Below, piece after piece: positions 1,545-23,870 of a DNA stretch of 64,000 bases (position 1 is the stretch's first letter; each line of letters opens with the position of its first letter). The translations under genes and the position numbers were made by a program. The DNA lies in the NCBI GenBank assembly GCA_025544715.1, contig GCA_025544715.1_4109.2; one strand, written 5' to 3'. The DNA is from Escherichia coli. Its GTDB lineage: Bacteria; Pseudomonadota; Gammaproteobacteria; Enterobacterales; Enterobacteriaceae. The notes under the pieces were generated by a model. It did not search any database, had not been told where the DNA came from, and saw nothing but the letters and a program-made list of their open reading frames with translations.

Positions 1545-1991
1545 TTAGTTATATGCTGTGAATAGATCAATGTTTTTATCATCTACACTGATTAATTTGC
1601 CAGTTGAACTAACAAACACAATATTTCCACCTGGCGTTAGTTGAACACGCTGGTTTACTGAATATTGCCCATTAAGGTTGTAATCAGCCCATTCGACTAC
1701 ATAACGTTGAATAACACCGTTAGTATCATAAAGATAAACGTGTGTCACGTCACGCATTTTCAAACGTTCCAACAATGTAGAGTTATCCATGAAATCAGAT
1801 GGTGTATTGCTGCGTAAAGCAATACCAAACTCACCGATACCAGTACTAATTGTCAGTCCGTTTGAAAAACGGCTACAAAGAGTCTTCTCATCAGCAATAT
1901 GCATCCATAAAACATTCTTTACATCAATATCAACAAATTCACAGTTTTCAAAAACCAAACCTACTTTGGAAACTTTACCATTAAATTGCAT
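1545..1991 (-). CDS. hypothetical protein
   Basis: 148-aa ORF. Confidence 0.45.
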   Translation of the reverse strand: MQFNGKVSKVGLVFENCEFVDIDVKNVLWMHIADEKTLCSRFSNGLTISTGIGEFGIALRSNTPSDFMDNSTLLERLKMRDVTHVYLYDTNGVIQRYVVEWADYNLNGQYSVNQRVQLTPGGNIVFVSSTGKLISVDDKNIDLFTAYN

Positions 1992-2436
1992 TAGTAACTC
2001 CTATTTTTTTATATTTTAAAATTAAATCACTCACGGCTTTCATTAGATTATATGGAATAGCTAACTCTTTAACAGTACTATCCATAAAATGTTCTTCTTC
2101 GGTATCATAAAATGTTGAACTATAGTGTTCACAATCATTTATACTATCATAAAAAGAAGACGTAAGTTTATCGACAATGACAGTGATTTGTTTACCAGTT
2201 TTGGTATATCCTACCTGAACGGTTAATCCAATATCCTCAGCCTCTACACGAATTATAAACGAATTATTAGTATAGTTCAGCCAACAATCTTCACCAAAGT
2301 ATACAACACTGTGTTTCTTCTGAAATGAAGTAGCGGTGTTAAGAACACCAATAGCAACATCAACTGTTTTTTCATTTAAAATATTAGACATTTGTGTTCC
2401 TGCTTCGTATGTTTCGTGAAATCTCAAAAATACCAT
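1981..2436 (-). CDS. EE-FQ-S C-terminal-module family protein
   Basis: C-terminus TEEEHFMDSTVKEL...; shared motif with >=19 other ORFs in the window. Confidence 0.5.
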   Translation of the reverse strand: MVFLRFHETYEAGTQMSNILNEKTVDVAIGVLNTATSFQKKHSVVYFGEDCWLNYTNNSFIIRVEAEDIGLTVQVGYTKTGKQITVIVDKLTSSFYDSINDCEHYSSTFYDTEEEHFMDSTVKELAIPYNLMKAVSDLILKYKKIGVTNAI

Positions 2437-2812
2437 TCAACTGTTCAACAGTTAAACCCTGTAAATCATAAACAGTTGATAGTTGAAAGAAAAGTTCTGA
2501 ATCTATAGTATCATGTTCAATTGGAAGATTCAAGAGGTCTTTGTTAATAAAATAATCATATGTTCGAATTGTCAAAGAATCACCAAAGATATCAATGTAA
2601 AATTTCGGAACATTATGTAACGAAACATCTATTAATATGTTTTCAGCCTCTCTACAAGAAATTTTAGAATTATTTTTATAAGATTGGAATGAAAAATTAT
2701 AAGGTTCATCGACCGATGTGTATGATGAGGTATCACCTTCGGAAAATATTACACCACATTCAATAAGATGTGTTAACGACTTAGGTGGAATTTTTAACAT
2801 TTCACTTCCCAT
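2384..2812 (-). CDS. EE-FQ-S C-terminal-module family protein
   Basis: C-terminus DSELFFQLSTVYDLQGLTVEQLNGIF. Confidence 0.5.
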   Translation of the reverse strand: MGSEMLKIPPKSLTHLIECGVIFSEGDTSSYTSVDEPYNFSFQSYKNNSKISCREAENILIDVSLHNVPKFYIDIFGDSLTIRTYDYFINKDLLNLPIEHDTIDSELFFQLSTVYDLQGLTVEQLNGIFEISRNIRSRNTNV

Positions 2813-3221
2813 CCTTACTCATATTACTACGAATCACCCCACTAAGAAAACATATTTTCCTTAATGTATCATAACTGATATTTGTAAGATCATGTACAAA
2901 ATTCAACTGCAAGTACATTTCTTCAGTTAATTGATTAAATGTATCATCAACACAAATGTTAGTATGTTCCGTTATGTCTATTTCTATATTATTTTCCCAA
3001 ATATCAATGCTAACAGCATAGTCTGATGTATGCCTGGATTGAACTGAAATAAAAATATTATTACTGTTGTATAATGTCTCGGTGTACCCATTCAAAAATG
3101 ATCCAACGACAACATCAAAAATGCCATCTCTAATTGGGTTTTTTGTTTCAAACGTATCACTACAAACTTGACGGTATACAATGTCAACATACTTATCAAT
3201 TAAAGTAAACAAATAACTCAT
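2802..3221 (-). CDS. EE-FQ-S C-terminal-module family protein
   Basis: C-terminus TEEMYLQLNFVHDLTNISYDTL; start moved to ATG at 3219-3221 (GGTGA RBS) because the track start at 3230 is GTG. Confidence 0.5.
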   Translation of the reverse strand: MSYLFTLIDKYVDIVYRQVCSDTFETKNPIRDGIFDVVVGSFLNGYTETLYNSNNIFISVQSRHTSDYAVSIDIWENNIEIDITEHTNICVDDTFNQLTEEMYLQLNFVHDLTNISYDTLRKICFLSGVIRSNMSKDGK

Positions 3222-3239
3222 TACATTCACCTATATAAG

Positions 3240-3275
3240 AAAAAAGGCCGATTCATTGAATCAGCCTTAAGTATA
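3240..3275 (-). terminator. rho-independent terminator (hairpin + U-run)
   Basis: Minus-strand GGCTGATTCA-atg-AATCGGCC followed by TTTTTT. Confidence 0.45.
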
Positions 3276-3454
3276 ACATGTAAGAAGTTAAAATGTCAAC
3301 TTCTAAATTACAGCATCCAAGAGGAATAAAAAGATACTGTTAGAGGGTAACGAATATAATGAATTTGAGGGTAATATCATTATACGTAAAAAGTGATAGC
3401 TTCTATACATAAGGAGGAATCAGTACTGACTAGAAGCTATCGGGTTAAACGATT

Positions 3455-3739
3455 TCAGTACTGAGTGTTTAGTTTAGGATGAGTATTTCCATCTTCGATT
3501 TGTTTTAGAATCGAGTCACGAATTTCTACTGCCCCTTGATAACTATATTTATCTTTTGGGATCACCCATGTATATTCACCATCAGTGGTTTTAAAATCAA
3601 TACATGGATTATCCCTGTATTCAGATGCAATGATTGAAATAACATGTAATGAATTCAATGAATGATTTGTATAAGGATAATTGTTATTGTCTCTGAACGT
3701 GAATGTTTTTAGTTCATCAGGTGCAACAATGAATTCCAT
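3455..3739 (-). CDS. hypothetical protein
   Basis: 94-aa ORF. Confidence 0.45.
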   Translation of the reverse strand: MEFIVAPDELKTFTFRDNNNYPYTNHSLNSLHVISIIASEYRDNPCIDFKTTDGEYTWVIPKDKYSYQGAVEIRDSILKQIEDGNTHPKLNTQY

Positions 3740-3930
3740 TATTCATCCTCGTACTTCTTGAATGGTGGAACATCTACCTTGAAGTCTTTGCACATCTTAG
3801 TTGTACGAACTTCAGTATTGTTGTGATAATTTTTCTTAAATTCATAAGAAACATAATTACGAATACCAGGTGTATGAATAATAGCAAGAACCAATGTACG
3901 ACCAAACAAGCATAATAAATTCCAGAACAT
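3739..3930 (-). CDS. hypothetical small protein
   Basis: 63-aa ORF, 1-nt overlap with neighbour. Confidence 0.35.
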   Translation of the reverse strand: MFWNLLCLFGRTLVLAIIHTPGIRNYVSYEFKKNYHNNTEVRTTKMCKDFKVDVPPFKKYEDE

Positions 3931-3939
3931 ATGAATCTC

Positions 3940-4305
3940 CTAATTGTGGGTTTTAACTAAACGTGAGACAGCTAGTATAGCATTAACCTCATCCAATGTC
4001 AACCCACCAATGTCATTAATCATTGAGTACTGAAATAGTGATTCTTCAGTGTAATGGTAATCATGAGAAGCAATAAAGATTGCTGGTTTAGATGCATCCA
4101 AAATTATCTTTGTCATTGTACTATATATATCAAATTGATACAATAGATTTTCACTTGTATATGCTATGTAGATATTATTTGAATAGGCTGGATGTACCAT
4201 TGTAAAACCATCATAACATAATATTTTTATGTTCGGATCGTCAAAATTGCCTGTATAAAGGTTATTACAAACATCTTGCATTATACGTACTATTAGACTA
4301 GTCAT
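3940..4305 (-). CDS. EE-FQ-S C-terminal-module family protein
   Basis: C-terminus TEESLFQYSMINDIGGLTLDEVNAILAVSRLV. Confidence 0.5.
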   Translation of the reverse strand: MTSLIVRIMQDVCNNLYTGNFDDPNIKILCYDGFTMVHPAYSNNIYIAYTSENLLYQFDIYSTMTKIILDASKPAIFIASHDYHYTEESLFQYSMINDIGGLTLDEVNAILAVSRLVKTHN

Positions 4306-4729
4306 TTAATGGATTTAGTACCTCTTCTGGAATCAACTTTTGAACTTTAAGTATAGCTTTAATGTCATCAAATGTCAATCCACGTAGGTCGTTTAGGAGG
4401 CAGTACTGGAAGAATTTTTCTTCAGTATTTATATCGTCAATATTCATTTGGATTGATTCGTTATCATCATCATAATCATAATCTTCATTATCACAATAAT
4501 AACTTCTGAATATAACTCGTTCAAAATACACATCAAATGAATAAAAATGATTATCGATTTCATATCCAAGAAAAATATTAAAACATGTATTTAAATCTGT
4601 TGTTTCATTTAAATTTGTGTCAAAACAAAAAACTCGCACTTCACCAATATCATCTATATATTCATCTTTGAGTGACCATGTGTTGTTTTTTAATACATAG
4701 TTCACAAGTTCAACGATGTTGTATTTCAT
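4298..4729 (-). CDS. EE-FQ-S C-terminal-module family protein
   Basis: C-terminus TEEKFFQYCLLNDLRGLTFDDIKAILKVQKLI. Confidence 0.5.
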   Translation of the reverse strand: MKYNIVELVNYVLKNNTWSLKDEYIDDIGEVRVFCFDTNLNETTDLNTCFNIFLGYEIDNHFYSFDVYFERVIFRSYYCDNEDYDYDDDNESIQMNIDDINTEEKFFQYCLLNDLRGLTFDDIKAILKVQKLIPEEVLNPLND

Positions 4730-4741
4730 AGTGTACCTTTA

Positions 4742-4791
<50 letters not shown>

Positions 4792-4848
4792 TAATTGAGA
4801 AGTAAGATAACCAACAAGTCTCCATACTCTTTCGCATTGAGGGGAGGC

Positions 4849-4930
<82 letters not shown>

Positions 4931-4934
4931 AGCA

Positions 4935-4981
<47 letters not shown>

Positions 4982-5024
4982 ATTGGCCTCTTTATGTTAA
5001 AAACCCCAGTTTTCTTCTTGAACC

Positions 5025-5122
<98 letters not shown>

Positions 5123-5141
5123 GCATACTCGAAGTACCTCT

Positions 5142-5290
<149 letters not shown>

Positions 5291-5291
5291 G

Positions 5292-5765
<474 letters not shown>

Positions 5766-5777
5766 TTAAATACTCTC

Positions 5778-6457
<680 letters not shown>

Positions 6458-6463
6458 AACTTA

Positions 6464-7003
6464 TTAACGTTCATCATCATGAATCTCACGATGACAATTA
6501 GCACAAACCATAATACATTTATCTAGTTCTATTTTGATTTTTTCAAAAGAACGAGTTGAACCTTCTTGACTAATTGAAAAATCTTTCTGTGAAGGGTCAA
6601 TATGGTGAAATTCTAATGCCGCAATGCATTTATTATAACCACACTTTTCGCAGCAACCACCTTTGTATTCAACAGCTAATATTTTTAATTTTCTACGTCT
6701 ATCCGAAACACGTTGACTGTCACATTTTGAGCATTTCCATTTACCTTGTGAATTTAAATCATAATTCTTATTGTGTATTTCACAAAATCTCATTTCATTC
6801 GTTGACTTTGGTCGTTTAACACCATGTGATTCAATAATGTTATTGATTCTTGATCTATTACACTTATATTCTTTGGCTAAACCGTAAATTGGCATACCAT
6901 TTAAATACTTCTGAATTATTTCATTCTCTGGTAATTTAGAACTTTTCGCCTTTATTGCTTCGGCTATTTTGTTGCGTGTTTCTTCTGATTGTTTTCGTCC
7001 CAT
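6464..7003 (-). mobile_element. HNH homing endonuclease
   Basis: N-terminal EETRNKIAEAIK (NUMOD3-like), helix-turn-helix-like segment, Cys pairs, C-terminal EFHHID...CANCHREIH HNH motif; sits next to a tRNA cluster. Confidence 0.7.
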
Positions 7004-7069
7004 GAACCTTAGACCTCATAATATCCATTATGATATTATTTATTGTTCCAAGGTTCATAGTTAATTTGC

Positions 7070-7152
7070 TGGTAGTACTGGAGTCGAACCAGTCTTGTCA
7101 TTTCTGACACGGATTAACAGTCCGTTGCATAAGGCCGATATGCTAACTACCA
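7070..7152 (-). tRNA. type II tRNA (long variable arm), anticodon read as GTT
   Basis: 7-bp acceptor TGGTAGT/ACTACCA, D-stem GCAT/ATGC, anticodon stem ACGGA/TCCGT with loop CTGTTAA, variable hairpin GTCAGAAATGAC, T-arm ACTGG-TTCGACT-CCAGT; tRNA-Tyr-like body with an Asn anticodon. Confidence 0.55.
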
Positions 7153-7164
7153 TTTGTTTTAAAT

Positions 7165-7244
<80 letters not shown>

Positions 7245-7247
7245 GTA

Positions 7248-7741
<494 letters not shown>

Positions 7742-8103
7742 ATCACCAACTTTAATTAAAAAAATGGATGGTGACGCGTTTAAACGCCGCTGTTAATTCA
7801 GCTTTATAACCACCCGTTTTAACTTACCTTTCGGCTACCTTGACGTGGGGCGTACAGGCTACTAAAAGCAACTTCTGTAAACATATTTCCACGCCTTACC
7901 ATTTTAAATAAAAGTCCATCCGGTTTTCCAGTTTGGTGAAGGACTGTCACCTCTAGTTTCAACCTGCTAGTCAAGTAATAATTGCCTATCGTCCAATTAT
8001 CAAACCCGTCTAGGTTAACATTCACCACTTCCTAGAGTACCAGAGATCTTGTTCTGGATAGCATCGACGTAACTTACACCATATACGTCTGATTGTGGAA
8101 TTC

Positions 8104-8128
8104 ATTATATCAGTACTGAACTATTTAG

Positions 8129-8132
<4 letters not shown>
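8104..8132 (-). promoter_or_regulatory. early-type sigma70 promoter (TTGACT-17-TATAAT)
   Basis: Same architecture and spacer as 7345-7373 (TTGACTaaatagttcagtactgaTATAAT). Confidence 0.6.
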
Positions 8133-8541
<409 letters not shown>

Positions 8542-8554
8542 GCTTTTTTTTTAA

Positions 8555-8715
<161 letters not shown>

Positions 8716-8719
<4 letters not shown>

Positions 8720-8876
8720 ATTCGTACCAGTAGTTCAATTAAGTACATTTCATATGCTGGATCGTTGATAAGTTTATCATACAGATGTGGCTCTGAAATG
8801 AATTCCCAATGATACTCTAACCACTTACCAAAACCTGCATATCTAAAATTAATGTCATTCATCCATTCTTCATGTG

Positions 8877-8880
<4 letters not shown>
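8716..8880 (-). CDS. MTHEEW-family small protein (54 aa)
   Basis: Hand-translated MTHEEWMNDINFRYAGFGKW...; ATGA stop/start overlap on both sides. Confidence 0.55.
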
Positions 8881-9140
<260 letters not shown>

Positions 9141-9145
9141 TATTT

Positions 9146-9273
<128 letters not shown>

Positions 9274-9277
9274 TTAT

Positions 9278-9496
9278 TTATGCAAGTGCTTTAGATACAC
9301 CGACACCAATAATTCCAGTGATAGCGATATGGATATTGACAAGTTGATTACTATCATATGGGTTTGTTTCTGTAATAACCAATGTTGTATCATTGACTAA
9401 AACCACAGTGCCTTTTACACGATACCCATGTAGTAGTACTTGAACCTCATCTTCAGGTTTTAATGATTGAATAACTTCAAATAAAGTTGTTTCCAT
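9278..9496 (-). CDS. hypothetical small protein
   Basis: 72-aa ORF. Confidence 0.4.
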   Translation of the reverse strand: METTLFEVIQSLKPEDEVQVLLHGYRVKGTVVLVNDTTLVITETNPYDSNQLVNIHIAITGIIGVGVSKALA

Positions 9497-9512
9497 TTTT
9501 TATATTCCTTGT

Positions 9513-9695
9513 TTAGTTTTGATTATTTGATTTTCTAAATGCCAGTTCGCATATAAACCAAGGTTTTCTGGTATCCAAAACATATGACCTGAAAAGATTT
9601 TCATCTCTTAAGATATCATAATGTACCTGACGAATGCCATTTCCAAAGCAATCATGTTCTTTATGCTGTTTGGACATCCATTCTTCGTGTGTCAT
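9513..9695 (-). CDS. MTHEEW-family small protein (60 aa)
   Basis: Track ORF 9513-9713 contains MTHEEWMSKQHKEHDCFGNGIRQVHYD; start moved to the conserved MTHEEW ATG at 9695. Confidence 0.5.
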   Translation of the reverse strand: MTHEEWMSKQHKEHDCFGNGIRQVHYDILRDENLFRSYVLDTRKPWFICELAFRKSNNQN

Positions 9696-9696
9696 T

Positions 9697-10032
<336 letters not shown>

Positions 10033-10037
10033 TCTTA

Positions 10038-10214
10038 CTATTTTTTGTCTCTAATTGCAAGCTCATAGATGAACCAGTGGTTGCTATCCCCATCCAATAC
10101 AAATGATTTGAAAAGTTGTTTATCTTTTAACACATCATAATGACCTTGGCGTATACCAAAACCAAAAGGATTATGTTTGAATTTTAGTTCATCTAACCAT
10201 TCTTCATGTGTCAT
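10038..10214 (-). CDS. MTHEEW-family small protein (~58 aa)
   Basis: Hand-translated MTHEEWLDELKFKHNPFGFGIRQGHYDVLKD...; same conserved 5' nucleotide block. Confidence 0.45.
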   Translation of the reverse strand: MTHEEWLDELKFKHNPFGFGIRQGHYDVLKDKQLFKSFVLDGDSNHWFIYELAIRDKK

Positions 10215-10444
10215 CTCTTAATATCCATAACGGCTATACTAAAATATGTACTAAAATCATCACAGTGAATGATATTGTTATAGTACGATTCGGGATCATT
10301 TAACAATAAAAACAACTCCAACTTAAAAAAGTATACATCACCTGCATTTATATTGTAATGCATTTGATACCACTCGTCAAATGTTTTAGGCTGCACTGTA
10401 TTTACCTTTATAAAAATCCATAATTTTAGATAACAGTACTGCAA
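10211..10444 (-). CDS. possible degenerate MTHEEW-like paralogue
   Basis: Track ORF contains KTFDEWYQMHYNINAGD resembling MTHEEWMNDINFRYAGFG; track start is TTG and it overlaps the neighbour's 3' end, so it may be a decayed copy. Confidence 0.3.
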   Translation of the reverse strand: MQYCYLKLWIFIKVNTVQPKTFDEWYQMHYNINAGDVYFFKLELFLLLNDPESYYNNIIHCDDFSTYFSIAVMDIKR

Positions 10445-10790
10445 TAGTATAATCTAAATCTGGATAAAGTAAATTGTACTGAAATTCTTCCTCTACACTG
10501 TAGTTAGTGGTGCAGTACTGGTAGTCTTTATAACCTATTGAAAAATAATTCGGATACAATGTACAACGAAAACGATATGCTTCATCTGTCATATAATCAT
10601 TGTATTCAACACAGAAGTATAGTGATTTGGCATTTAATTCAATAAGCTCAACGAAACCATCTGGTAATGAATGGTTATAAATGACTGAATCTTCATTAAA
10701 CCATTCATAGTATTTTTCCAAAAAATCACTAATGGACACATCCAGACTTTGTATAGGTGGAGTTATGATAATTTGAACTTCGTTATTCAT
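10386..10790 (-). CDS. EE-FQ-S C-terminal-module family protein
   Basis: C-terminal region YSVEEEFQYNLLYPDLDYTIAVLL. Confidence 0.45.
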   Translation of the reverse strand: MNNEVQIIITPPIQSLDVSISDFLEKYYEWFNEDSVIYNHSLPDGFVELIELNAKSLYFCVEYNDYMTDEAYRFRCTLYPNYFSIGYKDYQYCTTNYSVEEEFQYNLLYPDLDYTIAVLLSKIMDFYKGKYSAA

Positions 10791-11335
10791 TTCGACCCCT
10801 TACTATATTTCACGTATGGGCTATCATACAGATCATAACTTTTTTGTGCACGTTCTTTTCGGCGTTCATACATGATTCTATCATACTCTTTAGCTTTCTG
10901 ATTTGCTTCATTATACAATTTTAAAATTAGCAAAAATGCATCAAGATCGGGATAGTTTGCTGGATTGATAGTACTCAGCATAAATCGTTCTTCTTCAGTT
11001 CTAGCTAAGTCAAATTCATACTTAATAGTTTTATACCCACTCCATTTATATATATGCGTTACTTTATTAGTAAGTACATTATATTCAACGAAGTCAGTAC
11101 TACCATCAAGTACACGAGTAATCTTAATAGATGTACCAATGACAATCTGTACAGAACTCATTTCTGAAGTTTTAAAGTAATAAATGTTATTACGGCGAAG
11201 ATTAACTTCTCGATCTCCAATGCGAACATGCTTAATAACTTCCATTAATGGTTCTGGTACACCACGAATTGGCATGTTAATGCTCCTTTTTAATTCTATA
11301 CATTTTAACAGCACTGGTTTCCCAAAAGTCACCAT
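10787..11335 (-). CDS. EE-FQ-S module family protein with C-terminal extension
   Basis: ARTEEERFMLSTINPANYPDLDAFLLILKLY followed by ~45 more residues. Confidence 0.45.
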   Translation of the reverse strand: MVTFGKPVLLKCIELKRSINMPIRGVPEPLMEVIKHVRIGDREVNLRRNNIYYFKTSEMSSVQIVIGTSIKITRVLDGSTDFVEYNVLTNKVTHIYKWSGYKTIKYEFDLARTEEERFMLSTINPANYPDLDAFLLILKLYNEANQKAKEYDRIMYERRKERAQKSYDLYDSPYVKYSKGSK

Positions 11336-11513: not shown

Positions 11514-11543
11514 TATTTGTATTATATCAGAGTTTCATTGCAC

Positions 11544-11936
11544 TTACCAGCATGTTTTCATAACTTCTGTGATGTAAATCATTTTATCTTTTAGTGTGTA
11601 AGGGATGCAAATTTCACTAGGGCTTAACGTTGTGTTCTTTTGAAACTCATCTTCTTCGGAATCAGCCAGGTAAAATGGGTGCGTCACAAAGTTATCATCA
11701 ACAGGACGATTATGTGGTTTCATTAATGCATCATGATTTACAAAATAATATGCATCAATATCAGGACGGAAATATAAACAATCAACCTTTAAGCACGGGT
11801 GTAACCATAAGGACAAAGAATATGTTATTTGGTTACCAATTTGTCTTGGGCCTGATGCAATTGTATTGATGTTATTTTTATCTTGTACCATTTCATAAAT
11901 GAAATCTATCATTTCGTGTAGTTCTGATTCAGTCAT
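11544..11936 (-). CDS. EE-FQ-S C-terminal-module family protein (divergent)
   Basis: C-terminal region ADSEEDEFQKNTTLSPSEI. Confidence 0.45.
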   Translation of the reverse strand: MTESELHEMIDFIYEMVQDKNNINTIASGPRQIGNQITYSLSLWLHPCLKVDCLYFRPDIDAYYFVNHDALMKPHNRPVDDNFVTHPFYLADSEEDEFQKNTTLSPSEICIPYTLKDKMIYITEVMKTCW

Positions 11937-15784: not shown

Positions 15785-16317
15785 TTCGTATATCCTCGTT
15801 TAATTAATATAGGAGTATTATATATACTCCATTTTCATTTGTCAAGCTTTATAATACGGAAGACTTTTTACTAAAGATTCAGACGTATTATTTTTTACCC
15901 ATGTACTACCGTTGTCATTAGATACGTATCCAGTACCATTAATAAATTTACGCATAATACCAGTAAAAATGTTAGTGTATACCATTATTCAGAATCCTTC
16001 GGTTTAGAATGCAAACCATACTTTTCATCATAACGATCATAGGTAGTGCCATTAGTACTGGCTTTGATGCTTTCGGTTCGATTGATTTTTTCAATCTTAA
16101 CACCACGATAACCAATCTCTTCTTTAAATTGTTCCCATGATTCACGTAGACTCATTTTTAGTCCCCTTTTGTTATTTCATACACTCACGTAGGTCAATCT
16201 TTTCTACTGACCCACCGAGTACTAGATAGTAAAAATTGGAATCTTTGTTAGCCATATTCAAAAGATCTGCTTTCTGTTGAAGCGTAAAGCGTGAAGTACT
16301 GTTACGTACTGGCATAG

Positions 16318-16761
16318 TTACTCCTTAAAGTAGATATCACGAATTTGCTTAATCATCTCTAACTCTTGAAGTCCTATCATACCAAAGTTTTCTTGTACTG
16401 TCAACTGTTGGAAGTACATTTCCTCTAAATTATTATAAGGAATATCCACTAATGATAAAGGAACACTTTCACCACGGTATAGCAGATCTTCAACGAAAAG
16501 TTTTAAAATCATGATAGAAAATGAATCTTTTTGGATATGAAATTTGTAAAATGTTTGGTTAGTACTGAACATTGTATTTGATGGATTGAAACCCATTTCA
16601 ACAAATACTGTATCTTTATCATTATGTTTGAAATATGTACATCTTGAATTCGCAAGAACTTTAGATTTTGGGAAATAAAAATCACCCATCAACTTCTGTC
16701 GTTTCCAATCCTCGTATACAACTGGATGCTTAACCTTCTTCAATTGGTGCAGTACTGTCAT
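16318..16761 (-). CDS. EE-FQ-S C-terminal-module family protein
   Basis: C-terminal region NNLEEMYFQQLTVQENFGMIGLQELEMIKQI. Confidence 0.5.
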   Translation of the reverse strand: MTVLHQLKKVKHPVVYEDWKRQKLMGDFYFPKSKVLANSRCTYFKHNDKDTVFVEMGFNPSNTMFSTNQTFYKFHIQKDSFSIMILKLFVEDLLYRGESVPLSLVDIPYNNLEEMYFQQLTVQENFGMIGLQELEMIKQIRDIYFKE

Positions 16762-17141
16762 AGTTTTTTCCAGTCCAATGAATCGAAATCGATTTGCTCA
16801 GGATTATCAACAGCGACAACTCGTGCATTATGAAGAGTTTCAAAGTAGCCGTTCCACGGTGTTCGTAATGGAACTGTCACATCGCCAACTTTAACCAAGA
16901 ATGAATATTCTGGTGATATTGGGTCAAACCACTCTTTTTGTTTAGCATTTTCAACGATAGTTTCGTGTTCTTTAGTATAGCAATTATCTTGCTTCATATA
17001 AAACACCCAATGCTCTTTTAGGCACTGTAAAGCAGCAACTGCTTCCTCTTTAGAAGACCATTGAATATCAATTGTATCAAGAACGTCATAACAATTTTCA
17101 GTGTCCCCTGTAGTGTAATGTACTTCAATGCTGTATTTCAT
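16758..17141 (-). CDS. hypothetical protein
   Basis: 127-aa ORF inside the family cluster but lacking the motif. Confidence 0.45.
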   Translation of the reverse strand: MKYSIEVHYTTGDTENCYDVLDTIDIQWSSKEEAVAALQCLKEHWVFYMKQDNCYTKEHETIVENAKQKEWFDPISPEYSFLVKVGDVTVPLRTPWNGYFETLHNARVVAVDNPEQIDFDSLDWKKL

Positions 17142-17596
17142 TAATCATCGCCTTTTAGTAATTTACAAATTTCAATCATATGATAATAACATGTATTCCA
17201 AAATTGTCCATTAGTACTTCCAACATCATGCACTGTACTTTGCTGGAACACATATTCATCGTTGAACATCATTTTAATATCATCAATGTAAAATTCTGGT
17301 TTTGAATCATTATTGTATTCAATACTCGTTTCACCATCTGGATCAAGTGAAATTGATGATATGTCGTGAATTCCTCTCGGATTTGTTGGATAAATTCTCA
17401 ACGTAAGAGGATAGAAGTCTGGATCGGTTTCATAAGTATATTCGATTATGTAATAACCATCACCAGTAATTGATTGATATTTAAATGTAGTTTCAATTGA
17501 ATTTGAGATGTTAAATCCCAGTTTCTTTATCTCATGTAGATGTGATAATATTTTATGTAAAGATCCTAAAACATGAATCAAATTATCAATTTTCAT
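17141..17596 (-). CDS. EE-FQ-S C-terminal-module family protein
   Basis: C-terminal region FNDEYVFQQSTVHDVGST. Confidence 0.5.
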   Translation of the reverse strand: MKIDNLIHVLGSLHKILSHLHEIKKLGFNISNSIETTFKYQSITGDGYYIIEYTYETDPDFYPLTLRIYPTNPRGIHDISSISLDPDGETSIEYNNDSKPEFYIDDIKMMFNDEYVFQQSTVHDVGSTNGQFWNTCYYHMIEICKLLKGDD

Positions 17597-18108
17597 TTAC
17601 GATCCTTTGAAAAGTTCAGTTTAAAAGTTTTACCAAATTCCATTGTAGCTTTACCCAGATTGTTAATATTTTCTTTCAACATTTCTTGCATCTTCCTAAT
17701 ACTTTCAATCCAGGTTTCTTCTTCGATACGAAGAATTGGTCGCAATCGTTCCTGAATATCGTTAAAACGTGTATTGAGTTCAACCAATGATTCATATGTG
17801 AAATCTTTCATATCGATAATAGTACTTCTTTGAAAGAATTCTTCTTCAGACAAATTACTTAAAATGATTTTATCACGACCAATAGATAATGTCAATTCAT
17901 CATCTTTATTTTTTTTAATTACAATACTAACAGGTGTTTTTAATGTAATGCAAATATCATGATTATTAAATGTTTCAGTTTGGTTTGACATTCTGAATTG
18001 AAGTTTCCCAGATAAAGCATGTACTGGTGATGGTTGCTTTTTACCAGTAATAACATCTTCCCATGAATCGAGAATATTATTAATAATTTTAACATAAGGA
18101 ATTGGCAT
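17593..18108 (-). CDS. EE-FQ-S module family protein with C-terminal extension
   Basis: LSEEEFFQRSTIIDMKDFTYESL...; start moved to ATG at 18106-18108 (AGGTG RBS), below the terminator hairpin. Confidence 0.5.
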   Translation of the reverse strand: MPIPYVKIINNILDSWEDVITGKKQPSPVHALSGKLQFRMSNQTETFNNHDICITLKTPVSIVIKKNKDDELTLSIGRDKIILSNLSEEEFFQRSTIIDMKDFTYESLVELNTRFNDIQERLRPILRIEEETWIESIRKMQEMLKENINNLGKATMEFGKTFKLNFSKDRK

Positions 18109-18120
18109 ATATGCACCTAT

Positions 18121-18147
18121 GAAAAATCCACGCAATGCGTGGATTTG
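18121..18147 (-). terminator. rho-independent terminator
   Basis: Stem AATCCACGC/GCGTGGATT followed on the minus strand by TTTT. Confidence 0.5.
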
Positions 18148-18150
18148 TAA

Positions 18151-18681
18151 TTATTCAAGTATAGTAATTTCAATTAAACGAATTTCGATAAACTCGTTTT
18201 CAGTTTCCCATGACGTGCCAAATTTCTTTTCAAGTTCAGATTTCACATCACTTTTAAATTTTCCCATAGTATTAGGAATAATTTGTTTGGTTAATTTGTC
18301 GTAACCACAATAAAACATAGGTTTCTCCCTTCGAGATATTAGCTGAACAAAATCTTTTGGATATGCAGGTATGTTATGCATCACTTCATGAATACACTCA
18401 GTACTTGAATCTTGTACTTTGTAGATTACATTAAGTTTACCTCTGAAATTTGCGGTCATATCAACAATAGTTCCTTTACCCGATTTAAGTAAAGTTCCAT
18501 TCTTTGAATGAGAGCAATAAAATACCTCATCACCAATATTAGGATAATACAAATTAAATTCTAATTCAGATTTTACAGCCAGCCGTTTGAAACTTTCTGT
18601 ACGTTTTATATAAGTTTGGTATTTGTTTATGTTCAAAAGAATATCTCTCTTAGTAAATGTGATATAACTGGCATAGTCCAT
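18151..18681 (-). CDS. hypothetical protein
   Basis: 176-aa ORF immediately downstream of the methyltransferase gene. Confidence 0.45.
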   Translation of the reverse strand: MDYASYITFTKRDILLNINKYQTYIKRTESFKRLAVKSELEFNLYYPNIGDEVFYCSHSKNGTLLKSGKGTIVDMTANFRGKLNVIYKVQDSSTECIHEVMHNIPAYPKDFVQLISRREKPMFYCGYDKLTKQIIPNTMGKFKSDVKSELEKKFGTSWETENEFIEIRLIEITILE

Positions 18682-19493
18682 CCATTCCCAAGCATTTTGT
18701 ATGCTTGTGTCTTACTAGACACTTTAAAGAAATCTTCAGGAACACCCTGTAATTTACAACATTCTACTACACTTAAGTGTCTATAGTCAATATTTCTTTT
18801 GCCATTCTCTAATAGATATTGACGATTAATCACTGGATCACGAAACACCAATTGTCGTCTGGATTTATTAAAGTACTGGTTACAATCACCACCTTTAAAA
18901 TAGTTAGCATCTATACAGTACGAAGCGGTTCTGTCAGTGTACCAACCATCTTCAATAATATCTTGAAGTTTAGGTGCATTGGATAATGCAGGTGGTATAA
19001 AAAGCTTATCAGTACTGTACCAGTAATATCTCTGCCTGAAGTGAGGCGTATAATGCTGGGAGTTTATCAGTACTGGCGTGATTCCTAAAATACTATTAAT
19101 GTATTCTTTGAAATCTTCCTTCATTTTGACATTTTCAAACAGAAATTTCAAGTTAGGATTGAGACTTTTGATATGATCAAAAATTTCAACCATTACTAAA
19201 AATAACTGCCCACGTATATCATTTAAACCACCCTGTTTACCTGCAACTGACCAGGCTTGGCATGGGAAACCACCCATTAATAAATCTATTTTGTCCCACT
19301 CAATATCCCATTCTCTCCACTTAGTTACATCACCCAATTGGATAATATCAGGAAAGTTAGATTGAGATTCAGCTATTGCGTACTTATCAATTTCGGATGA
19401 ATAATATTTTTCAACTGGGATACCAGCATCTTGCAATGCCATATATCCCACACTCATTCCATTAAAAAGAGAAAGTACTCGGATAGGTTTCAT
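18633..19493 (-). CDS. DNA (cytosine-5)-methyltransferase, Dcm-like
   Basis: Motif I LFNGMSVG, motif IV GFPCQAWS (catalytic Cys), motif VI FENV. Confidence 0.85.
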   Translation of the reverse strand: MKPIRVLSLFNGMSVGYMALQDAGIPVEKYYSSEIDKYAIAESQSNFPDIIQLGDVTKWREWDIEWDKIDLLMGGFPCQAWSVAGKQGGLNDIRGQLFLVMVEIFDHIKSLNPNLKFLFENVKMKEDFKEYINSILGITPVLINSQHYTPHFRQRYYWYSTDKLFIPPALSNAPKLQDIIEDGWYTDRTASYCIDANYFKGGDCNQYFNKSRRQLVFRDPVINRQYLLENGKRNIDYRHLSVVECCKLQGVPEDFFKVSSKTQAYKMLGNGWTMPVISHLLREIFF

Positions 19494-19545
19494 ATAAAAT
19501 CCTTTTTATATTGTTAAGGTACTATAATATATTATAGCATCTTAT

Positions 19546-19836
19546 TTAGAAATCTTCCAAACTTTTTTCATCACACCATCGTGATGTACAGATGATTGCA
19601 GATGCCAGAATTGAAGAACTTGCACGTCCTCCACCGAGTAAGTACTGGCTAATTACGCCAATCATATTGAACACTTTATCATACTCGGTTAGTTGTTCAA
19701 AACCTTTCTTCCAATGCTGATATTCTTCTTCTGTGATATTAAACTCACCATCAAGTTCCTTTAAAATCTTTTTAAGCACAGCACTATGTTCACTCATCAT
19801 CATCTCCATATCGTTCGTCATAAAAATCATCATCAC
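19546..19836 (-). CDS. hypothetical protein
   Basis: 96-aa ORF with Met-rich N-terminus. Confidence 0.4.
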   Translation of the reverse strand: MMMIFMTNDMEMMMSEHSAVLKKILKELDGEFNITEEEYQHWKKGFEQLTEYDKVFNMIGVISQYLLGGGRASSSILASAIICTSRWCDEKSLEDF

Positions 19837-19875
19837 GATCTAATGGTTCTTTTGGCTTTTCAGACATATATTTCC

Positions 19876-20136
19876 TCACATGGTAAATGTATTATCACCA
19901 TCCATATCTTCATCAGTTGCTTCAGCTAATGTCTTGATTGTAAGTAATCCACGCTTCACGTACAACATGAAGACCTTTTCATAATTACCAAACATAATCT
20001 CAGGTGACATGTAATTCTCTGTTACAATGACGATTGGACGGCCCTGTGAAAGCATACGAAACATAGTACGATATTTGTCAAATGTGCGAAATTCATCCAT
20101 GTTCATCATGTGGCGTTTACGAACTACTTTAGTCAT
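19876..20136 (-). CDS. hypothetical protein
   Basis: 86-aa ORF. Confidence 0.4.
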   Translation of the reverse strand: MTKVVRKRHMMNMDEFRTFDKYRTMFRMLSQGRPIVIVTENYMSPEIMFGNYEKVFMLYVKRGLLTIKTLAEATDEDMDGDNTFTM

Positions 20137-20150
20137 CTTATTACCTTTAG

Positions 20151-20591
20151 TTAATTGAACTCTACTTCTGGATAATGATTATAGAACATCTCACGAACTG
20201 CGTCAAGATGTTCTTTAAATTTCTCAATGTCATCGAGTGTTAATATAGTGTCACATATAGTACTTAACTGAAAGAGTGATTCTTCAGTACTGTTTAACTC
20301 CAAATCAAATGTAGATGACGATTCATCTGAGATAATATTACCACATATTTCAAATGTGTCAATATGAACATCATTCAGTTTATTACCAATATAATCATTA
20401 TATATGAACACAAAAATGTATGATGATTTTTTAGTATAGGTTTTAACATCATATGTTATGTAACATTTAAAGTCAAATGTATCATATTCCAATGATACAA
20501 TTCCAACATCACGATATTCGTTTGTTTCACTTGTTAAATCCGGTATAGATGTAATACCTAATAAATCAAAAAACTTTATTGGATTTAGCAT
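20151..20591 (-). CDS. EE-FQ-S C-terminal-module family protein
   Basis: C-terminal region NSTEESLFQLSTICDTILTLDDIEKF. Confidence 0.5.
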   Translation of the reverse strand: MLNPIKFFDLLGITSIPDLTSETNEYRDVGIVSLEYDTFDFKCYITYDVKTYTKKSSYIFVFIYNDYIGNKLNDVHIDTFEICGNIISDESSSTFDLELNSTEESLFQLSTICDTILTLDDIEKFKEHLDAVREMFYNHYPEVEFN

Positions 20592-21037
20592 TTGATTACC
20601 TTTGGATTTTGTTCGATTATGTCAAATAATGACAAAACCATTTCATTTATTTTTTCAAAACTTAAGACTATATAACTTAAATCTTTATAATCATAATTAA
20701 AATTTTGAATAAGTGATTCCTGGAAATATCCTTCTTCTGTTATGCATGTACTTGCATTATATATAGTTGTACAAGTCACATCAGTATAAGTTGAAATAAT
20801 TTCAATAATGTCAGATATAGTATTGTATATTAACATAACTGTTGTTGTTCTGATAAGTGGGTTGTAAAAGGATAACTCAGTACGGTCATAGGTCTTTTCA
20901 ATATGAACTATACATGAATGTGAATAAGAACTACTAATATGTATATACTCTTTAGGTGATACTACACTTTTGGTATCGAAATTACAAGATAATGCAATTT
21001 CAAAATGTTTTTTTATTTCGTCAACATTCATCCTCAC
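20585..21037 (-). CDS. EE-FQ-S C-terminal-module family protein
   Basis: C-terminal region CITEEGYFQESLIQNFNYDYKDLSYIVL. Confidence 0.5.
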   Translation of the reverse strand: MRMNVDEIKKHFEIALSCNFDTKSVVSPKEYIHISSSYSHSCIVHIEKTYDRTELSFYNPLIRTTTVMLIYNTISDIIEIISTYTDVTCTTIYNASTCITEEGYFQESLIQNFNYDYKDLSYIVLSFEKINEMVLSLFDIIEQNPKVIKC

Positions 21038-21405
21038 TCACCATTAATTTTTATATTTGTATAGTCTAATGCTTTTTTAACAATATCGATTTCTGTAATT
21101 CCTATTACATTTTTCTCAATCACTGACAATTGGAATAGTTCCTCTTCGGAAATATCAATACTGTGGATTCTTGTACAATAATCGTTGAAGTCATATACAT
21201 ATCGTATTGTATAGTCGTTTATAGAAACTGATACAATTGCAATCCCATCATGGATATAAGTTAGTTCATTTGAGTATCTATTAAAAATTAACCTATCTGG
21301 TGAACCTAATGGTAGTTGAAATGTATTTCTAGTATCTTGAACAATAACAAAATCATCATCTATATTTTTACTCAGAACACCCAAAATATCATATATAGTA
21401 GTCAT
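21034..21405 (-). CDS. EE-FQ-S C-terminal-module family protein
   Basis: C-terminal region DISEEELFQLSVIEKNVIGITEIDIVKKAL. Confidence 0.5.
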   Translation of the reverse strand: MTTIYDILGVLSKNIDDDFVIVQDTRNTFQLPLGSPDRLIFNRYSNELTYIHDGIAIVSVSINDYTIRYVYDFNDYCTRIHSIDISEEELFQLSVIEKNVIGITEIDIVKKALDYTNIKINGE

Positions 21406-21406
21406 G

Positions 21407-21811
21407 TTATTCTTTACCTTCAGCAGTTCTGATAATTTTCATAACTTCTCTGGATAGTGCATATACTTTTTTATAGTGCTCATACGTTACTGAACCAACA
21501 TTATTAATAGTACTTTCCATGAAGAAAGTTTCTTCTGTATACAGTTCATTTGACAATGCAACCAGTTCTTGGTGAAATTTTGAGTCCTTCCAATAACGAA
21601 ATTCAAAAACAAATTGTCCGTCATGTCCGACTCTACAACATTCAGAACGATCACTGTCTACACAGCTAATAACAATATCACTTTCTGAATCATACCAGAT
21701 ATTTCCCATATTTGTTTCAATAACAGCATAATCAATTTTTGTAGAATTGGGAATTAAACCTTTTTTCACCAGCACTAAACTGGTATTGTCAATATCTAGT
21801 AAACTTACCAT
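21407..21811 (-). CDS. EE-FQ-S C-terminal-module family protein
   Basis: C-terminal region LYTEETFFMESTINNVGSVTYEHYKKVYAL. Confidence 0.5.
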   Translation of the reverse strand: MVSLLDIDNTSLVLVKKGLIPNSTKIDYAVIETNMGNIWYDSESDIVISCVDSDRSECCRVGHDGQFVFEFRYWKDSKFHQELVALSNELYTEETFFMESTINNVGSVTYEHYKKVYALSREVMKIIRTAEGKE

Positions 21812-21812
21812 A

Positions 21813-22223
21813 TCAATTCCTCATTACTAAAGTGTTTTTAATCTCTAACAATTTACTATAAATCTTCTTGAATTGTAATATATCTTCAAAAGTAATACCA
21901 CCAAGATCATCAACTAATGAACGTTGGAATAAAGATTCACTTGTTTGTAATGTATCTAAATCGGTGATTTTTAATAAAGAACTTGGATTAAGTGTTTCGA
22001 CTAGTAGTATGTTTTTGTATGGTACATATGTAATCTTGATGTTCTTTTTATAATTAATCTTATAAAATCGCATAATTGACGATTCATCACTTAGTTGGAT
22101 AATTGGGTCGTCTTGTTCATTAGACCACCATACAGTACTAGTCATATGATTGACGTGGTGGTTCAATTCTGATATGTTCAAATCTAAAAAATATTTTATT
22201 TCATTGTGTAAATCTAAACTCAT
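21813..22223 (-). CDS. EE-FQ-S C-terminal-module family protein
   Basis: C-terminal region LQTSESLFQRSLVDDLGGITFEDILQF. Confidence 0.5.
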   Translation of the reverse strand: MSLDLHNEIKYFLDLNISELNHHVNHMTSTVWWSNEQDDPIIQLSDESSIMRFYKINYKKNIKITYVPYKNILLVETLNPSSLLKITDLDTLQTSESLFQRSLVDDLGGITFEDILQFKKIYSKLLEIKNTLVMRN

Positions 22224-22278
22224 AAATTTATCCTCAATGCAGCATCATCATGTATTGTAGGATAAACCCACAATAATG

Positions 22279-22674
22279 TCAAGATGTAAAATAATTATAC
22301 CAGTAATATAGTTCTTTTAATTCTTCAGTACTGAATAATACTTCTTCTATTGTAGATTGTTGAAAGTGATATTCATCATTAAGATACATAGAAATATTAC
22401 TATATACTTTCCTATTGTATTGACATAAAAAAGAAGTTTTTTTATTAATGTATTCAGTAAATGTTAATTTATCTAACTCAATATCGAAAGATAATCTAAT
22501 AATATTAATATTATCATTTACATACATTAGTTTCTTTGAAAAATGATCAATTGTAATATATTCTTTGTGAGAGAACTGAAATATATTATTAAATTTTTTA
22601 CCATTTGTGCTTCTAAATTTTTCAAGGTAATAAGAAAGTGGTTTAATTATTGAAGTTCCAATATTATTTTTCAT
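22279..22674 (-). CDS. EE-FQ-S C-terminal-module family protein
   Basis: C-terminal region LNDEYHFQQSTIEEVLFSTEELKELY; start moved to ATG at 22672-22674 so the terminator hairpin is not inside the gene. Confidence 0.45.
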   Translation of the reverse strand: MKNNIGTSIIKPLSYYLEKFRSTNGKKFNNIFQFSHKEYITIDHFSKKLMYVNDNINIIRLSFDIELDKLTFTEYINKKTSFLCQYNRKVYSNISMYLNDEYHFQQSTIEEVLFSTEELKELYYWYNYFTS

Positions 22675-22690
22675 ATATACTCGAATTTTA

Positions 22691-22719
22691 GATAATAAAA
22701 ATGCCCCGAAGATCGGGGC
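22691..22719 (-). terminator. rho-independent terminator
   Basis: Stem GCCCCGA/TCGGGGC with 3-nt loop, followed on the minus strand by ATTTTTATT. Confidence 0.5.
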
Positions 22720-22836
22720 AGTACTAAAATGATTTTGTACCAAAAGGGGAATAAGAACAAAATGAAAATATAATAACGCATCATTATTATGTAAAGGGAG
22801 GAAAGTAACATGATATGTTAACCATTTCTGGTATAT

Positions 22837-23388
22837 TTATTTATCATTTAATTCTTTAAGTTGGGTTTGTATATCTTTAGTTATATTGCGAATTTTCTTA
22901 AAGCAATAAACACTATCATCCAATTCGATTTTAAGTTCATGTGTAAATGCATACAGAAGTTCAGCAAATACTAAATCTTGTCGCATCCAGTTTCCATCTT
23001 TATATAAAGTCATTACACAATATGGGCATTCACTATTAGAAGTTTGCTTTCCAATAAAAACACTTTGAATTGATTCATGCTTAAAGCCAATAAAACTTTC
23101 ATTTATTTTTTTAATTTCAGTACTGATATCGAATTTAGCACTGGTGTTGATTGCAAAAATTTTATTCCCACTTTCATCAGTATTGATATTGAGTTCAATA
23201 TCACTACCTAGTTTACGTACTGCTAGAGTATAAAGAAGTAATTCATACATGTCGTAACTTGTTACATTACCATTTGGTGCAATTACATCAACACTAACAC
23301 CGTGCATTTTTACTTCTGTATTAAATCCATCTTTATCAGAAAGAAAATCAGTGATTTGCTTTGTAAGGATTTTAATTTGGTCTATCAT
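22837..23388 (-). CDS. hypothetical protein
   Basis: 183-aa ORF. Confidence 0.5.
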   Translation of the reverse strand: MIDQIKILTKQITDFLSDKDGFNTEVKMHGVSVDVIAPNGNVTSYDMYELLLYTLAVRKLGSDIELNINTDESGNKIFAINTSAKFDISTEIKKINESFIGFKHESIQSVFIGKQTSNSECPYCVMTLYKDGNWMRQDLVFAELLYAFTHELKIELDDSVYCFKKIRNITKDIQTQLKELNDK

Positions 23389-23410
23389 ATTTCATTTCCT
23401 TATGTGATAA

Positions 23411-23440
23411 AAGCCTCCATTATGGAGGCTTTTGTATTTA
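23411..23440. terminator. hairpin terminator, possibly bidirectional
   Basis: Perfect 9-bp stem AAGCCTCCA/TGGAGGCTT with 3-nt loop, T-runs on both sides. Confidence 0.55.
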
Positions 23441-23441
23441 C

Positions 23442-23870
23442 TTAGAGAGATTCTTCGTATTCAGCAACAATCCCAACCATTTCATTAATGAACTTGATGT
23501 GAGAATGTGTCACTGTACGGAAGTCGTAAACAAGTGACTGTTGGAAAAATACATCTTCATCAAGAGAACCATCAAAGTTCAAATCAATGTTTTCATCGTC
23601 ATTGCTTGGTGCAACTTTAATATTCAGAAGATTTTCATCAACTGCAAGTTTTACAACACAACCCAGTGCAATGGCAAGAACATATGCTGGTTTCTTAGCT
23701 TTTTCATTACGGAATGGTGCACGTAGAGCACAAAAAGTACTGCTAATCTCATCATTTGGTTCTTTGTATTTAACATTGACCATTAGTTCTTCGATTTTGA
23801 CGCTCTCAATAACACGACCAGTTTCTGGAGCGAAGAAAGAATGTTCACGGATAGTTTGTTCGATATTCAT
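23442..23870 (-). CDS. EE-FQ-S C-terminal-module family protein
   Basis: C-terminal region GSLDEDVFFQQSLVYDFRTVTHSHIKFINEMV. Confidence 0.5.
   Translation of the reverse strand: MNIEQTIREHSFFAPETGRVIESVKIEELMVNVKYKEPNDEISSTFCALRAPFRNEKAKKPAYVLAIALGCVVKLAVDENLLNIKVAPSNDDENIDLNFDGSLDEDVFFQQSLVYDFRTVTHSHIKFINEMVGIVAEYEESL

Follow-up and report, generated by a model that had tools for sequence, protein, structure and literature searches.

What links a set of small genes whose products share only one short motif on their C-terminal side, and what could such a set do? The question is raised by a 64,000-nucleotide stretch of DNA assembled from Escherichia coli (GCA_025544715.1, contig GCA_025544715.1_4109.2), hereafter the window, in which a preliminary description made from the sequence alone reported at least 20 open reading frames (ORFs) between positions 1981 and 23870 with unrelated N-terminal regions and a common C-terminal module. 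All 20 ORFs were confirmed in place, each with the motif, and all family genes in the window lie on the minus strand. Over window bases 16000-24000, identity to Escherichia phages CRJP21, 121Q, G17, PBECO4, and phAPEC6 is 95-97%; the window is DNA of an Asteriusvirus jumbo phage of the 121Q/PBECO4 type, and the Asteriusvirus phages that match it are jumbo myoviruses of about 350 kb. The 20 genes constitute one of two tandem arrays of a single clade-specific multigene family, which is real and has not been described previously. In RaK2/121Q-like jumbo myoviruses it makes up about 10% of the genes, each genome having about 44-61 copies or more.

The reality of the motif is supported by profile searches. 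A hidden Markov model (HMM) built from the 40-residue C-terminal segments gave scores of 31-52 bits to the 20 ORFs, while the best-scoring other ORF among the window's 568 (six frames) reached 7 bits. Since the scoring of a model's own training members is circular, the search was repeated in leave-one-out form, which recovered 17 members at E <1e-3 and one at E = 1.5e-3. Eighteen of the 20 are thus robust and two are borderline, namely 11544-11936 (E 0.038) and 10386-10790 (E 0.95), which retain EE[ED]EFQ only; the latter is of the expected size, has its Gln at residue ~103, and is located within an array. The regular expression [DE][DE]..F[QM].[SN][TL][VIL] occurs 10 times in the ORFs of the window and in none of 200 shuffles, and 107 of 6,516 ORFs from three genomes reached at least 12 bits, a score attained by none of their reversed or shuffled copies. 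If membership requires a length of about 110-200 residues and a core, [TS]-E-E-x-x-F-Q-x-S-[TL]-[VIL]-x-D, that is preceded by about 100 residues and followed by 30-70, 18 of the 20 qualify clearly and two marginally. No named domain was matched in Pfam-A (best E 0.0024, with single unrelated matches to six families, one member each), NCBIfam (0 matches for window members), PADLOC (0 matches), or PDB sequences (best E 1.1, not significant). The sharing of the module is therefore far beyond chance and reflects neither low-complexity acidic or aromatic sequence nor a known domain. The 20 members are spread over 23 separate PHROGs (phrog_17453, 24941, 21500, 24510, and about 19 more), none of which has an assigned function; PHROGs contain the proteins of the family but split them, and the unifying motif is not captured.

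The family extends well beyond the window. When all ORFs of two complete, unannotated genomes were scanned with an iterated HMM, 61 members were found in coliphage TH47 (MT446416.1), which belongs to the same genus as the window phage, and 44 in a Klebsiella RaK2-like phage (OU509535.1); both counts are lower bounds because degenerate copies fall below the census threshold. Three sub-threshold ORFs on the minus strand of TH47 (61342-62447, 64665-65276, and 135843-136415) have degenerate cores (SVMFQHMLIH, AENYFQQSLL, and NEEEYFQESIV, respectively) and N-terminal parts resembling those of family members. Within any one scanned genome, all members share one strand. In TH47, 20 members at 156.8-181.3 kb correspond to the window's set and are collinear with it, and a larger second array, outside that set, holds 34 members at 53.5-81.1 kb in TH47 and 26 members at 51-81 kb in OU509535.1. 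Second-array subfamilies carry other tails, e.g., PW[DG]SEEYYFQQST...WYFK and MQ[DE]DELFQYSL. A count of "at least 20" was thus true but covered just one of two arrays. As phAPEC6 has 551 predicted genes, the family represents about one gene in ten, in agreement with the RaK2 paper, which reports, without explanation, that nearly 10% of the gene products are mutual paralogues (PMC3622015). The CBB paper likewise lists 22 ORFs as paralogs (PMC5259590). These reports concern the same genomes and presumably, in part, the same genes, but they do not define the family or its motif, size (44-61 per genome), fold, or clade-wide spread. Members are annotated as "hypothetical protein" throughout the records of the clade; the 121Q equivalents of the window genes are genes 80-148.

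DNA-pattern, tblastn, and protein HMM searches indicate that the module is specific to this family and this jumbo-phage clade. A strict back-translated DNA pattern (~41 bits) matched only seven IMG/VR contigs, all of 345-378 kb and including RaK2 and CBB. The same pattern marked 18 loci in metagenomes, of which 15 contain family members, often several in tandem; the other three have a higher guanine-cytosine content and are likely chance matches. A tblastn search with one module returned 71 phage records, all from jumbo phages and, except for one partial record, of 320-385 kb, with hosts in nine genera (Escherichia, Klebsiella, Salmonella, Erwinia, Yersinia, Cronobacter, Pectobacterium, Serratia, and Xanthomonas). 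At the protein level, an exhaustive HMM search of 1.84 billion representative proteins yielded 73 significant matches of a single architecture: all carry the motif, their lengths are 62-176 residues, the motif lies at about residue 85-125 in the full-length ones, and none is fused to another domain. Ten divergent matches were traced, all to metagenome assemblies; two lie on contigs of ~350 kb (one of these is also present in phage JNE01), and one match sits within a tandem trio among T4-like jumbo-phage genes.

The conserved element itself is short. In 82 non-redundant lineages anchored on the motif Gln (position 0), information is limited to 14 columns, from -7 to +6, which read L-[TS]-E-E-E-[LYF]-F-Q-[YLQ]-S-[TL]-[VIL]-[YH]-D. 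Lineage frequencies are 96% for Phe, 93% for Gln, 79% for Ser, and 71% and 69% for the two Glu. Besides the hydrophobic positions, the polar ones (E, E, Q, S, and D) are nearly invariant, and the usual replacement of Gln is Met (4-7% of members). Columns upstream of the core are at background, and downstream of +6 there is a weak amphipathic pattern alone; columns -16 to -12 form a hydrophobic stretch preceded by a polar one, which fits a conserved last strand. The conserved module thus comprises these 14 residues rather than the ~35 that had been described, and the DL-x-GLT-x-[DE][DE]-I extension is limited to the window's subfamily.

Recurrence of this kind, and nothing more, would also be expected of a DNA- or RNA-level element, such as a promoter, a recombination site, or an RNA structure, of which the amino acid motif would be a by-product. 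Codon usage refutes this explanation and leaves it a negligible probability: Ser at +2 is encoded by AGT/AGC (AGY) in 41 cases and by TCN in 24, the core Gln by CAG in 46 and CAA in 31, the core Phe by TTT in 60 and TTC in 19, and the core Leu and Thr by several codons each, with third positions low in information. Such synonymous variation shows that the core is selected at the protein level. Furthermore, the ratio of nonsynonymous to synonymous substitution rates (dN/dS) between window and TH47 orthologs amounts to 0.07 for the core, compared with 0.30 for the N-terminal part and 0.29 for the tail; purifying selection thus acts on every part, with a roughly fourfold stronger constraint on the core.

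Cleavage or targeting signals also take the form of a linear motif with sharp boundaries, embedded in sequences that are otherwise unrelated. The sites recognized by tobacco etch virus (TEV) protease and human rhinovirus (HRV) 3C protease are ENLYFQ/S and LEVLFQ/GP, respectively, with cleavage at the slash, and the family core shares with TEV NIa and HRV 3C sites the arrangement E-x-x-[YLF]-F-Q with Ser no more than two residues further on. A 3C/NIa-type protease cutting after Gln would free a body of ~104 residues from a tail of ~43, and the agreement with E-E-x-[LYF]-F-Q/x-S extends to P6 (Glu, 71%), P3 (Leu, Tyr, or Phe), P2 (Phe, 96%), and P1 (Gln, 93%). This likeness is a resemblance only, and we consider processing quite improbable. 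The P1' residue is bulky (Tyr 32%, Leu 19%, Gln 13%) rather than Gly, Ser, or Ala; the segment is modeled as a confident helix packed in the domain, which would be a poor substrate, and not as an extended, accessible stretch. In addition, a crude GxCGG/GDSGG active-site expression run over the two genomes matched only a Nudix box and one non-conserved GDSGS, and a T4-type prohead protease is the sole protease named in the ~85 kb of annotated 121Q/phAPEC6/CBB record and in the clade papers searched. A conserved protein of ~200 residues, phrog_11259 (OU509535.1 198178-198783, plus strand; TH47 296395-297009, minus strand), carries GDSGSP in the Klebsiella phage only, probably by coincidence since it matches no protease family. 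The beta-clamp motif QL[SD]LF was considered and rejected: the family's Q-x-S-[TL]-[VIL] has Gln and Ser in common with it, but shows Val, Ile, or Leu at position 5, where Phe never predominates, and Thr at position 4 in 50%, and it forms part of an internal helix rather than a disordered terminus or loop.

The bodies that precede the core have diverged beyond sequence recognition. Pairwise BLASTP of the N-terminal parts in the window gave no significant similarity, 125 N-terminal parts fell into 86 phmmer clusters, still 82 after iterated HMMs, and homologue searches with full-length alignments returned mainly orthologues. The layout of the proteins is constant: counted from the first Met, the Gln lies at a median of residue 104 (interquartile range 92-117), the tail beyond it has a median of 43 residues, and overall size varies little. 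The proteins (median 145 residues) have a median isoelectric point (pI) of 4.7 and a net charge of -9, without hydrophobic or membrane segments. AlphaFold, given an alignment that included orthologues, modeled the 3940-4305 protein with a mean local confidence (pLDDT) of 88.6 and a global score (pTM) of 0.83; the model consists of a helix (residues 4-15), five strands between residues 26 and 79, and two further helices (87-96 and 104-114). The motif, EESLFQYSMI in this protein, is helix 87-96, the second of the three, and pLDDT is 82-93 in the blocks around it. In a weaker AlphaFold model, that of the 1981-2436 protein, the elements follow one another in the same order and the module is confident. 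When compared with BFVD by Foldseek, the predicted structure matched solely uncharacterized paralogues from phages of the same clade (UB, CBB, GAP32, RaK2, and fHe-Yen9-04), at template modeling (TM) scores of 0.5-0.77 and 14-29% identity over most of the length. Given the constant motif position and size, the two models, and the BFVD matches, the bodies are probably one very diverged alpha+beta domain with the motif as an integral helix, and the predicted fold looks new. The N-terminal regions are thus not alignable, as had been noted, whether by BLASTP, iterated HMMs, or hhalign, but they are not unrelated domains, as they keep a constant position and size and a shared predicted fold.

Two other interpretations of the fold were dropped. 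A helix-turn-helix was suggested by one weak HxlR match in 1 of the 20 members (E 0.069), but the median pI is acidic and only ~10 residues follow the last helix in the 3940-4305 model; an EF-hand-like reading failed on both sequence and structure grounds. The two C-terminal helices could also form a conserved interface for homo- or hetero-oligomers, so that paralogues would build mixed assemblies. Conservation of the C-terminal helix-loop-helix on more than one helical face, together with the availability of many co-expressed paralogues to one another, is in keeping with this idea; we nevertheless judge it improbable, given that family-wide conservation is weak downstream of +6, the third helix included, and that self-association needs no conservation between paralogues.

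The genomic setting fits the early-gene context proposed in the preliminary description. In window intervals 1500-12500 and 15500-24500, the coding strand carries every one of the 12 sigma-70-like sites that match the consensus at 11 or more of 12 positions, and 26 of the 30 that match at 10 or more; promoter-like sites lie just upstream of members at 8541-8514, 3299-3270, and 22795-22767, and terminator-like hairpins occur at 3268-3244 and 22720-22702. A perfect TTGACA-17-TATAAT is found at 15845-15817. The CBB paper proposes the RpoD-promoter-rich region CBB_390-546 as early (PMC5259590), and CBB_371, the one CBB member located, lies just outside it. The window's members are missing from virion proteomes: that of phAPEC6 has no entry between gp078c and gp149c, an interval that spans the whole family region of the window, and phAPEC6 gp037c is not a family member. 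None of the 20 is marked as a virion structural protein in the 121Q annotation, though neighbors are. The 20 window members are not virion components. A packaging or capsid-targeting tag in the style of T4 internal proteins, with L-[TS]-E serving as a prohead protease site (L/I-x-E), would account for the L-x-E inside the motif in a clade that has a T4-like prohead protease. This role, which had been listed among those proposed for the module, is contradicted by the phAPEC6 proteome and the 121Q annotation and fits poorly with acidic proteins encoded in a promoter-rich region of small genes, so that it is now highly improbable. The T4-type capsid-targeting sequence was rejected as a specific match as well, the motif being C-proximal rather than N-terminal and the window members absent from the virion.

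The reading we favor, with a probability of roughly 45%, casts the family as an early repertoire for host takeover or anti-defence, in which the motif helix provides a shared functional surface while the remainder diversifies. The family would have arisen by repeated tandem duplication of one early gene, after which the sheet and the other helices would have diverged past sequence recognition, each orthologous lineage still under purifying selection, and the motif helix would have been frozen as a shared functional surface. Every paralogue would use this helix to contact the same conserved partner, which could be a core protein encoded by the phage or a universal machine of the host, and target or specificity would differ from copy to copy by virtue of the diversified remainder. 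The occurrence of the motif on no other architecture, with all 73 significant proteins being small, is consistent with this scheme. The shared partner suggested at the outset is thus plausible, though putative, but the idea of a tag fused to separate effector domains is contradicted by the integral position of the predicted helix. A narrower version, in which the motif helix is an address label for one machine, be it a protease, an unfoldase or degron reader, a compartment or transport receptor, or a phage hub protein, seems unlikely to us.

The strongest competitor to the favored reading is a purely structural motif, that is, a helix which, by its capping box, hydrophobic staple, and core Phe and Val/Ile, serves as the folding nucleus of a fast-evolving scaffold and is conserved for the sake of the fold alone, with no shared partner and with paralogues that are independent or largely dispensable. 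A helix N-capping box combined with a hydrophobic staple consists of a hydrophobic residue at N', Ser or Thr at the N-cap, Glu at N3, and a hydrophobic residue at N4. This phi-[S/T]-x-x-E-phi pattern is present in the first six residues of the core (L-[TS]-E-E-E-[LYF]), where, across the 82 lineages, -7 is hydrophobic in 65% (Leu 32%), -6 is Thr or Ser in 59%, -3 is Glu in 42%, and -2 is hydrophobic in 82%. The modeled helix of the 3940-4305 protein starts at -5 (residues 87-96, with T86 as N-cap), exactly where the capping box predicts, and the GLT-x-[DE][DE] of the window's subfamily is a second capping box that opens the third and last helix. Exchanges of Gln for Met and among Leu/Tyr/Phe, Thr/Leu, and Val/Ile/Leu are typical of packing positions, and the models place the motif within a compact domain rather than in a tail. 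Conversely, the remaining helices and all strands of the fold show no conservation; Phe, Gln, and Ser are near-invariant over 82 otherwise mutually random lineages, which is unusual for fold upkeep alone; and the core dN/dS is 0.07 versus 0.30. A purely structural motif is hence a serious possibility, though a doubtful one.

Several points weigh against the favored reading. Half of the motif being a canonical helix-capping signature, its conservation may be in part structural, and replacement of the core Gln by Met hints that this residue is partly buried. Of the two models behind the proposed common fold, one is confident and the other weak, the TM-scores are moderate, and hhalign of 16 ortholog-group profiles placed only 3 of 120 pairs above the reversed-control maximum (Mann-Whitney p = 0.10). 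Early expression is suggested by consensus promoter matches, and this evidence is suggestive only because the total of weak promoter-like sites is no greater than in shuffles. The partner is putative and the support is computational throughout.

The members of the window and their individual scores are given in the table below. The three probable starts listed there, shorter than the longest ORF, follow the 121Q annotation.

Table 1. Family members in the window, with scores from the HMM of the 40-residue C-terminal segments of the 20 ORFs (each member included in the model) and leave-one-out (LOO) E-values
Position	Strand	Core and assignment	Bits	LOO E	Remarks
1981..2436	-	Member, TEEEHFMDSTV	43.9	1.6e-5	TH47 ortholog; start probably 2391, as 121Q gene 148; PHROG match begins at residue 16
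2384..2812	-	Member, DSELFFQLSTVYD	48.4	8.4e-8	
2802..3230	-	Member, TEEMYLQLNFVHD, divergent core	48.6	9.1e-4	
3940..4305	-	Member, TEESLFQYSMIND	52.4	1.6e-9	The modeled protein
4298..4729	-	Member, TEEKFFQYCLLND	47.3	8.2e-8	
7370..7741	-	Member, DEEDEFQKRTVYE	43.2	9.2e-5	
8129..8482	-	Member, TEEEYFQMSTVQE	49.6	5.8e-8	Promoter-like site 8541-8514 just upstream
10386..10790	-	Probable member, degenerate core SVEEEFQYNLLYP	31.0 (self-included)	0.95	
10787..11335	-	Member, TEEERFMLSTINP	41.5	7.8e-4	Long basic tail; pI 9.4
11544..11936	-	Probable member, degenerate core SEEDEFQKNTTLS	31.9	0.038	Three-genome HMM 8.8 bits
16318..16761	-	Member, LEEMYFQQLTVQE	43.5	5.1e-4	
17141..17596	-	Member, NDEYVFQQSTVHD	50.7	4.7e-4	
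17593..18135	-	Member, SEEEFFQRSTIID	44.6	1.8e-5	Long helical tail; start probably 18108 (121Q gene 93 = 516 nt)
20151..20591	-	Member, TEESLFQLSTICD	46.0	6e-8	
20585..21037	-	Member, TEEGYFQESLIQN	42.9	2e-5	
21034..21405	-	Member, SEEELFQLSVIEK	35.3	1.5e-3	
21407..21811	-	Member, TEETFFMESTINN	51.9	3.7e-10	
21813..22223	-	Member, TSESLFQRSLVDD	43.9	7.2e-8	
22279..22743	-	Member, NDEYHFQQSTIEE	40.5	1.7e-6	Terminator-like hairpin 22720-22702; start probably 22674 (121Q gene 83 = 396 nt)
23442..23870	-	Member, DEDVFFQQSLVYD	47.3	5.9e-5	

The gene at 4298-4729 is the sole window paralogue with weak N-terminal similarity to another (3940-4305; BLASTP E 0.009). The short stop/start overlaps reported earlier are borne out: of the 10 adjacent member pairs (gap <60 nt), seven share 4-11 nt and a further two are spaced by 1 nt. 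Similar-sized ORFs without the motif (16758-17141, 22837-23388, and 18151-18681, minus strand; HMM <7 bits) occur inside the arrays; they may have no relation to the family or may be copies from which the helix has disappeared. Identity between window and TH47 orthologues is 44-87% in 1981-4729 and 20151-23870 and 89-99% in 10386-18135, an uneven divergence that suggests mosaic or hypervariable sub-regions.

The tRNA genes and the homing endonuclease said to be interleaved with the arrays are also present. Six tRNA genes lie at 7068-7338, 9064-9234, and 9938-10010 on the minus strand. ARAGORN calls a tRNA-Arg(tct) in the window where 121Q annotates tRNA-Leu(taa), and 121Q has a tRNA-Thr(tgt) in the stretch matching the ~600-bp gap 4730-5327 (about 4740-5070), in which none is called in the window. 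The HNH endonuclease ORF (6464-7003, minus strand, 179 residues), beside a tRNA-Asn, has no counterpart at that place in 121Q, where gene 134 directly follows the tRNA; it probably reflects the strain-specific insertion of a homing endonuclease. Two family clusters flank a gene for a C5-cytosine DNA methyltransferase (18633-19493, minus strand), which is so annotated in 121Q (gene 91).

More than 80% of the genes in these 350-kb phages lack known function, and several of them are under consideration as therapeutics against bacteria that include E. coli, Klebsiella, Salmonella, and Erwinia. Recognition of the family turns ~60 "hypothetical proteins" per genome into one tractable question, namely which molecule reads the helix. 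If a common partner exists, it would be a central node of host takeover or counter-defence, and motif mutants or the partner itself might serve as an off switch for the whole repertoire. Were the helix an address label, the ~60 proteins per genome would form a co-regulated repertoire of motif-tagged effectors on a fold without known relatives, a phage counterpart of the RxLR/PEXEL effector sets known from eukaryotic pathogens and of poxvirus ankyrin (ANK)/PRANC adaptors. Were it only structural, the family would be a striking example from nature of how a single nucleating helix can maintain a fold as the rest drifts, and would still supply a useful new family model for annotation.

Comparable designs exist elsewhere. 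Poxvirus ankyrin/PRANC (F-box-like) proteins, oomycete RxLR-WY effectors, and T4 internal proteins are all sets of fast-evolving paralogues that carry one short constant element for a common machine, and in RxLR-WY effectors the fold is kept without sequence similarity. By analogy, the present family may work like the PRANC and RxLR-WY repertoires, with a constant element addressed to a common machine and the rest diversifying; the T4 version of the likeness is contradicted by the phAPEC6 proteome. Unlike in these sets, the constant element here is an internal helix of a folded domain rather than a terminal tag or a separate domain. Within jumbo phages, the closest parallel is Bacillus phage G, with its lineage-specific expansion of ~35 zinc-ribbon copies (PMC7824862), likewise one small domain massively amplified in one jumbo-phage lineage. 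The family described here differs in having another, uncharacterized fold, more copies, and a clade-wide presence in phages of nine host genera, and in keeping a single invariant helix instead of a recognizable domain signature.

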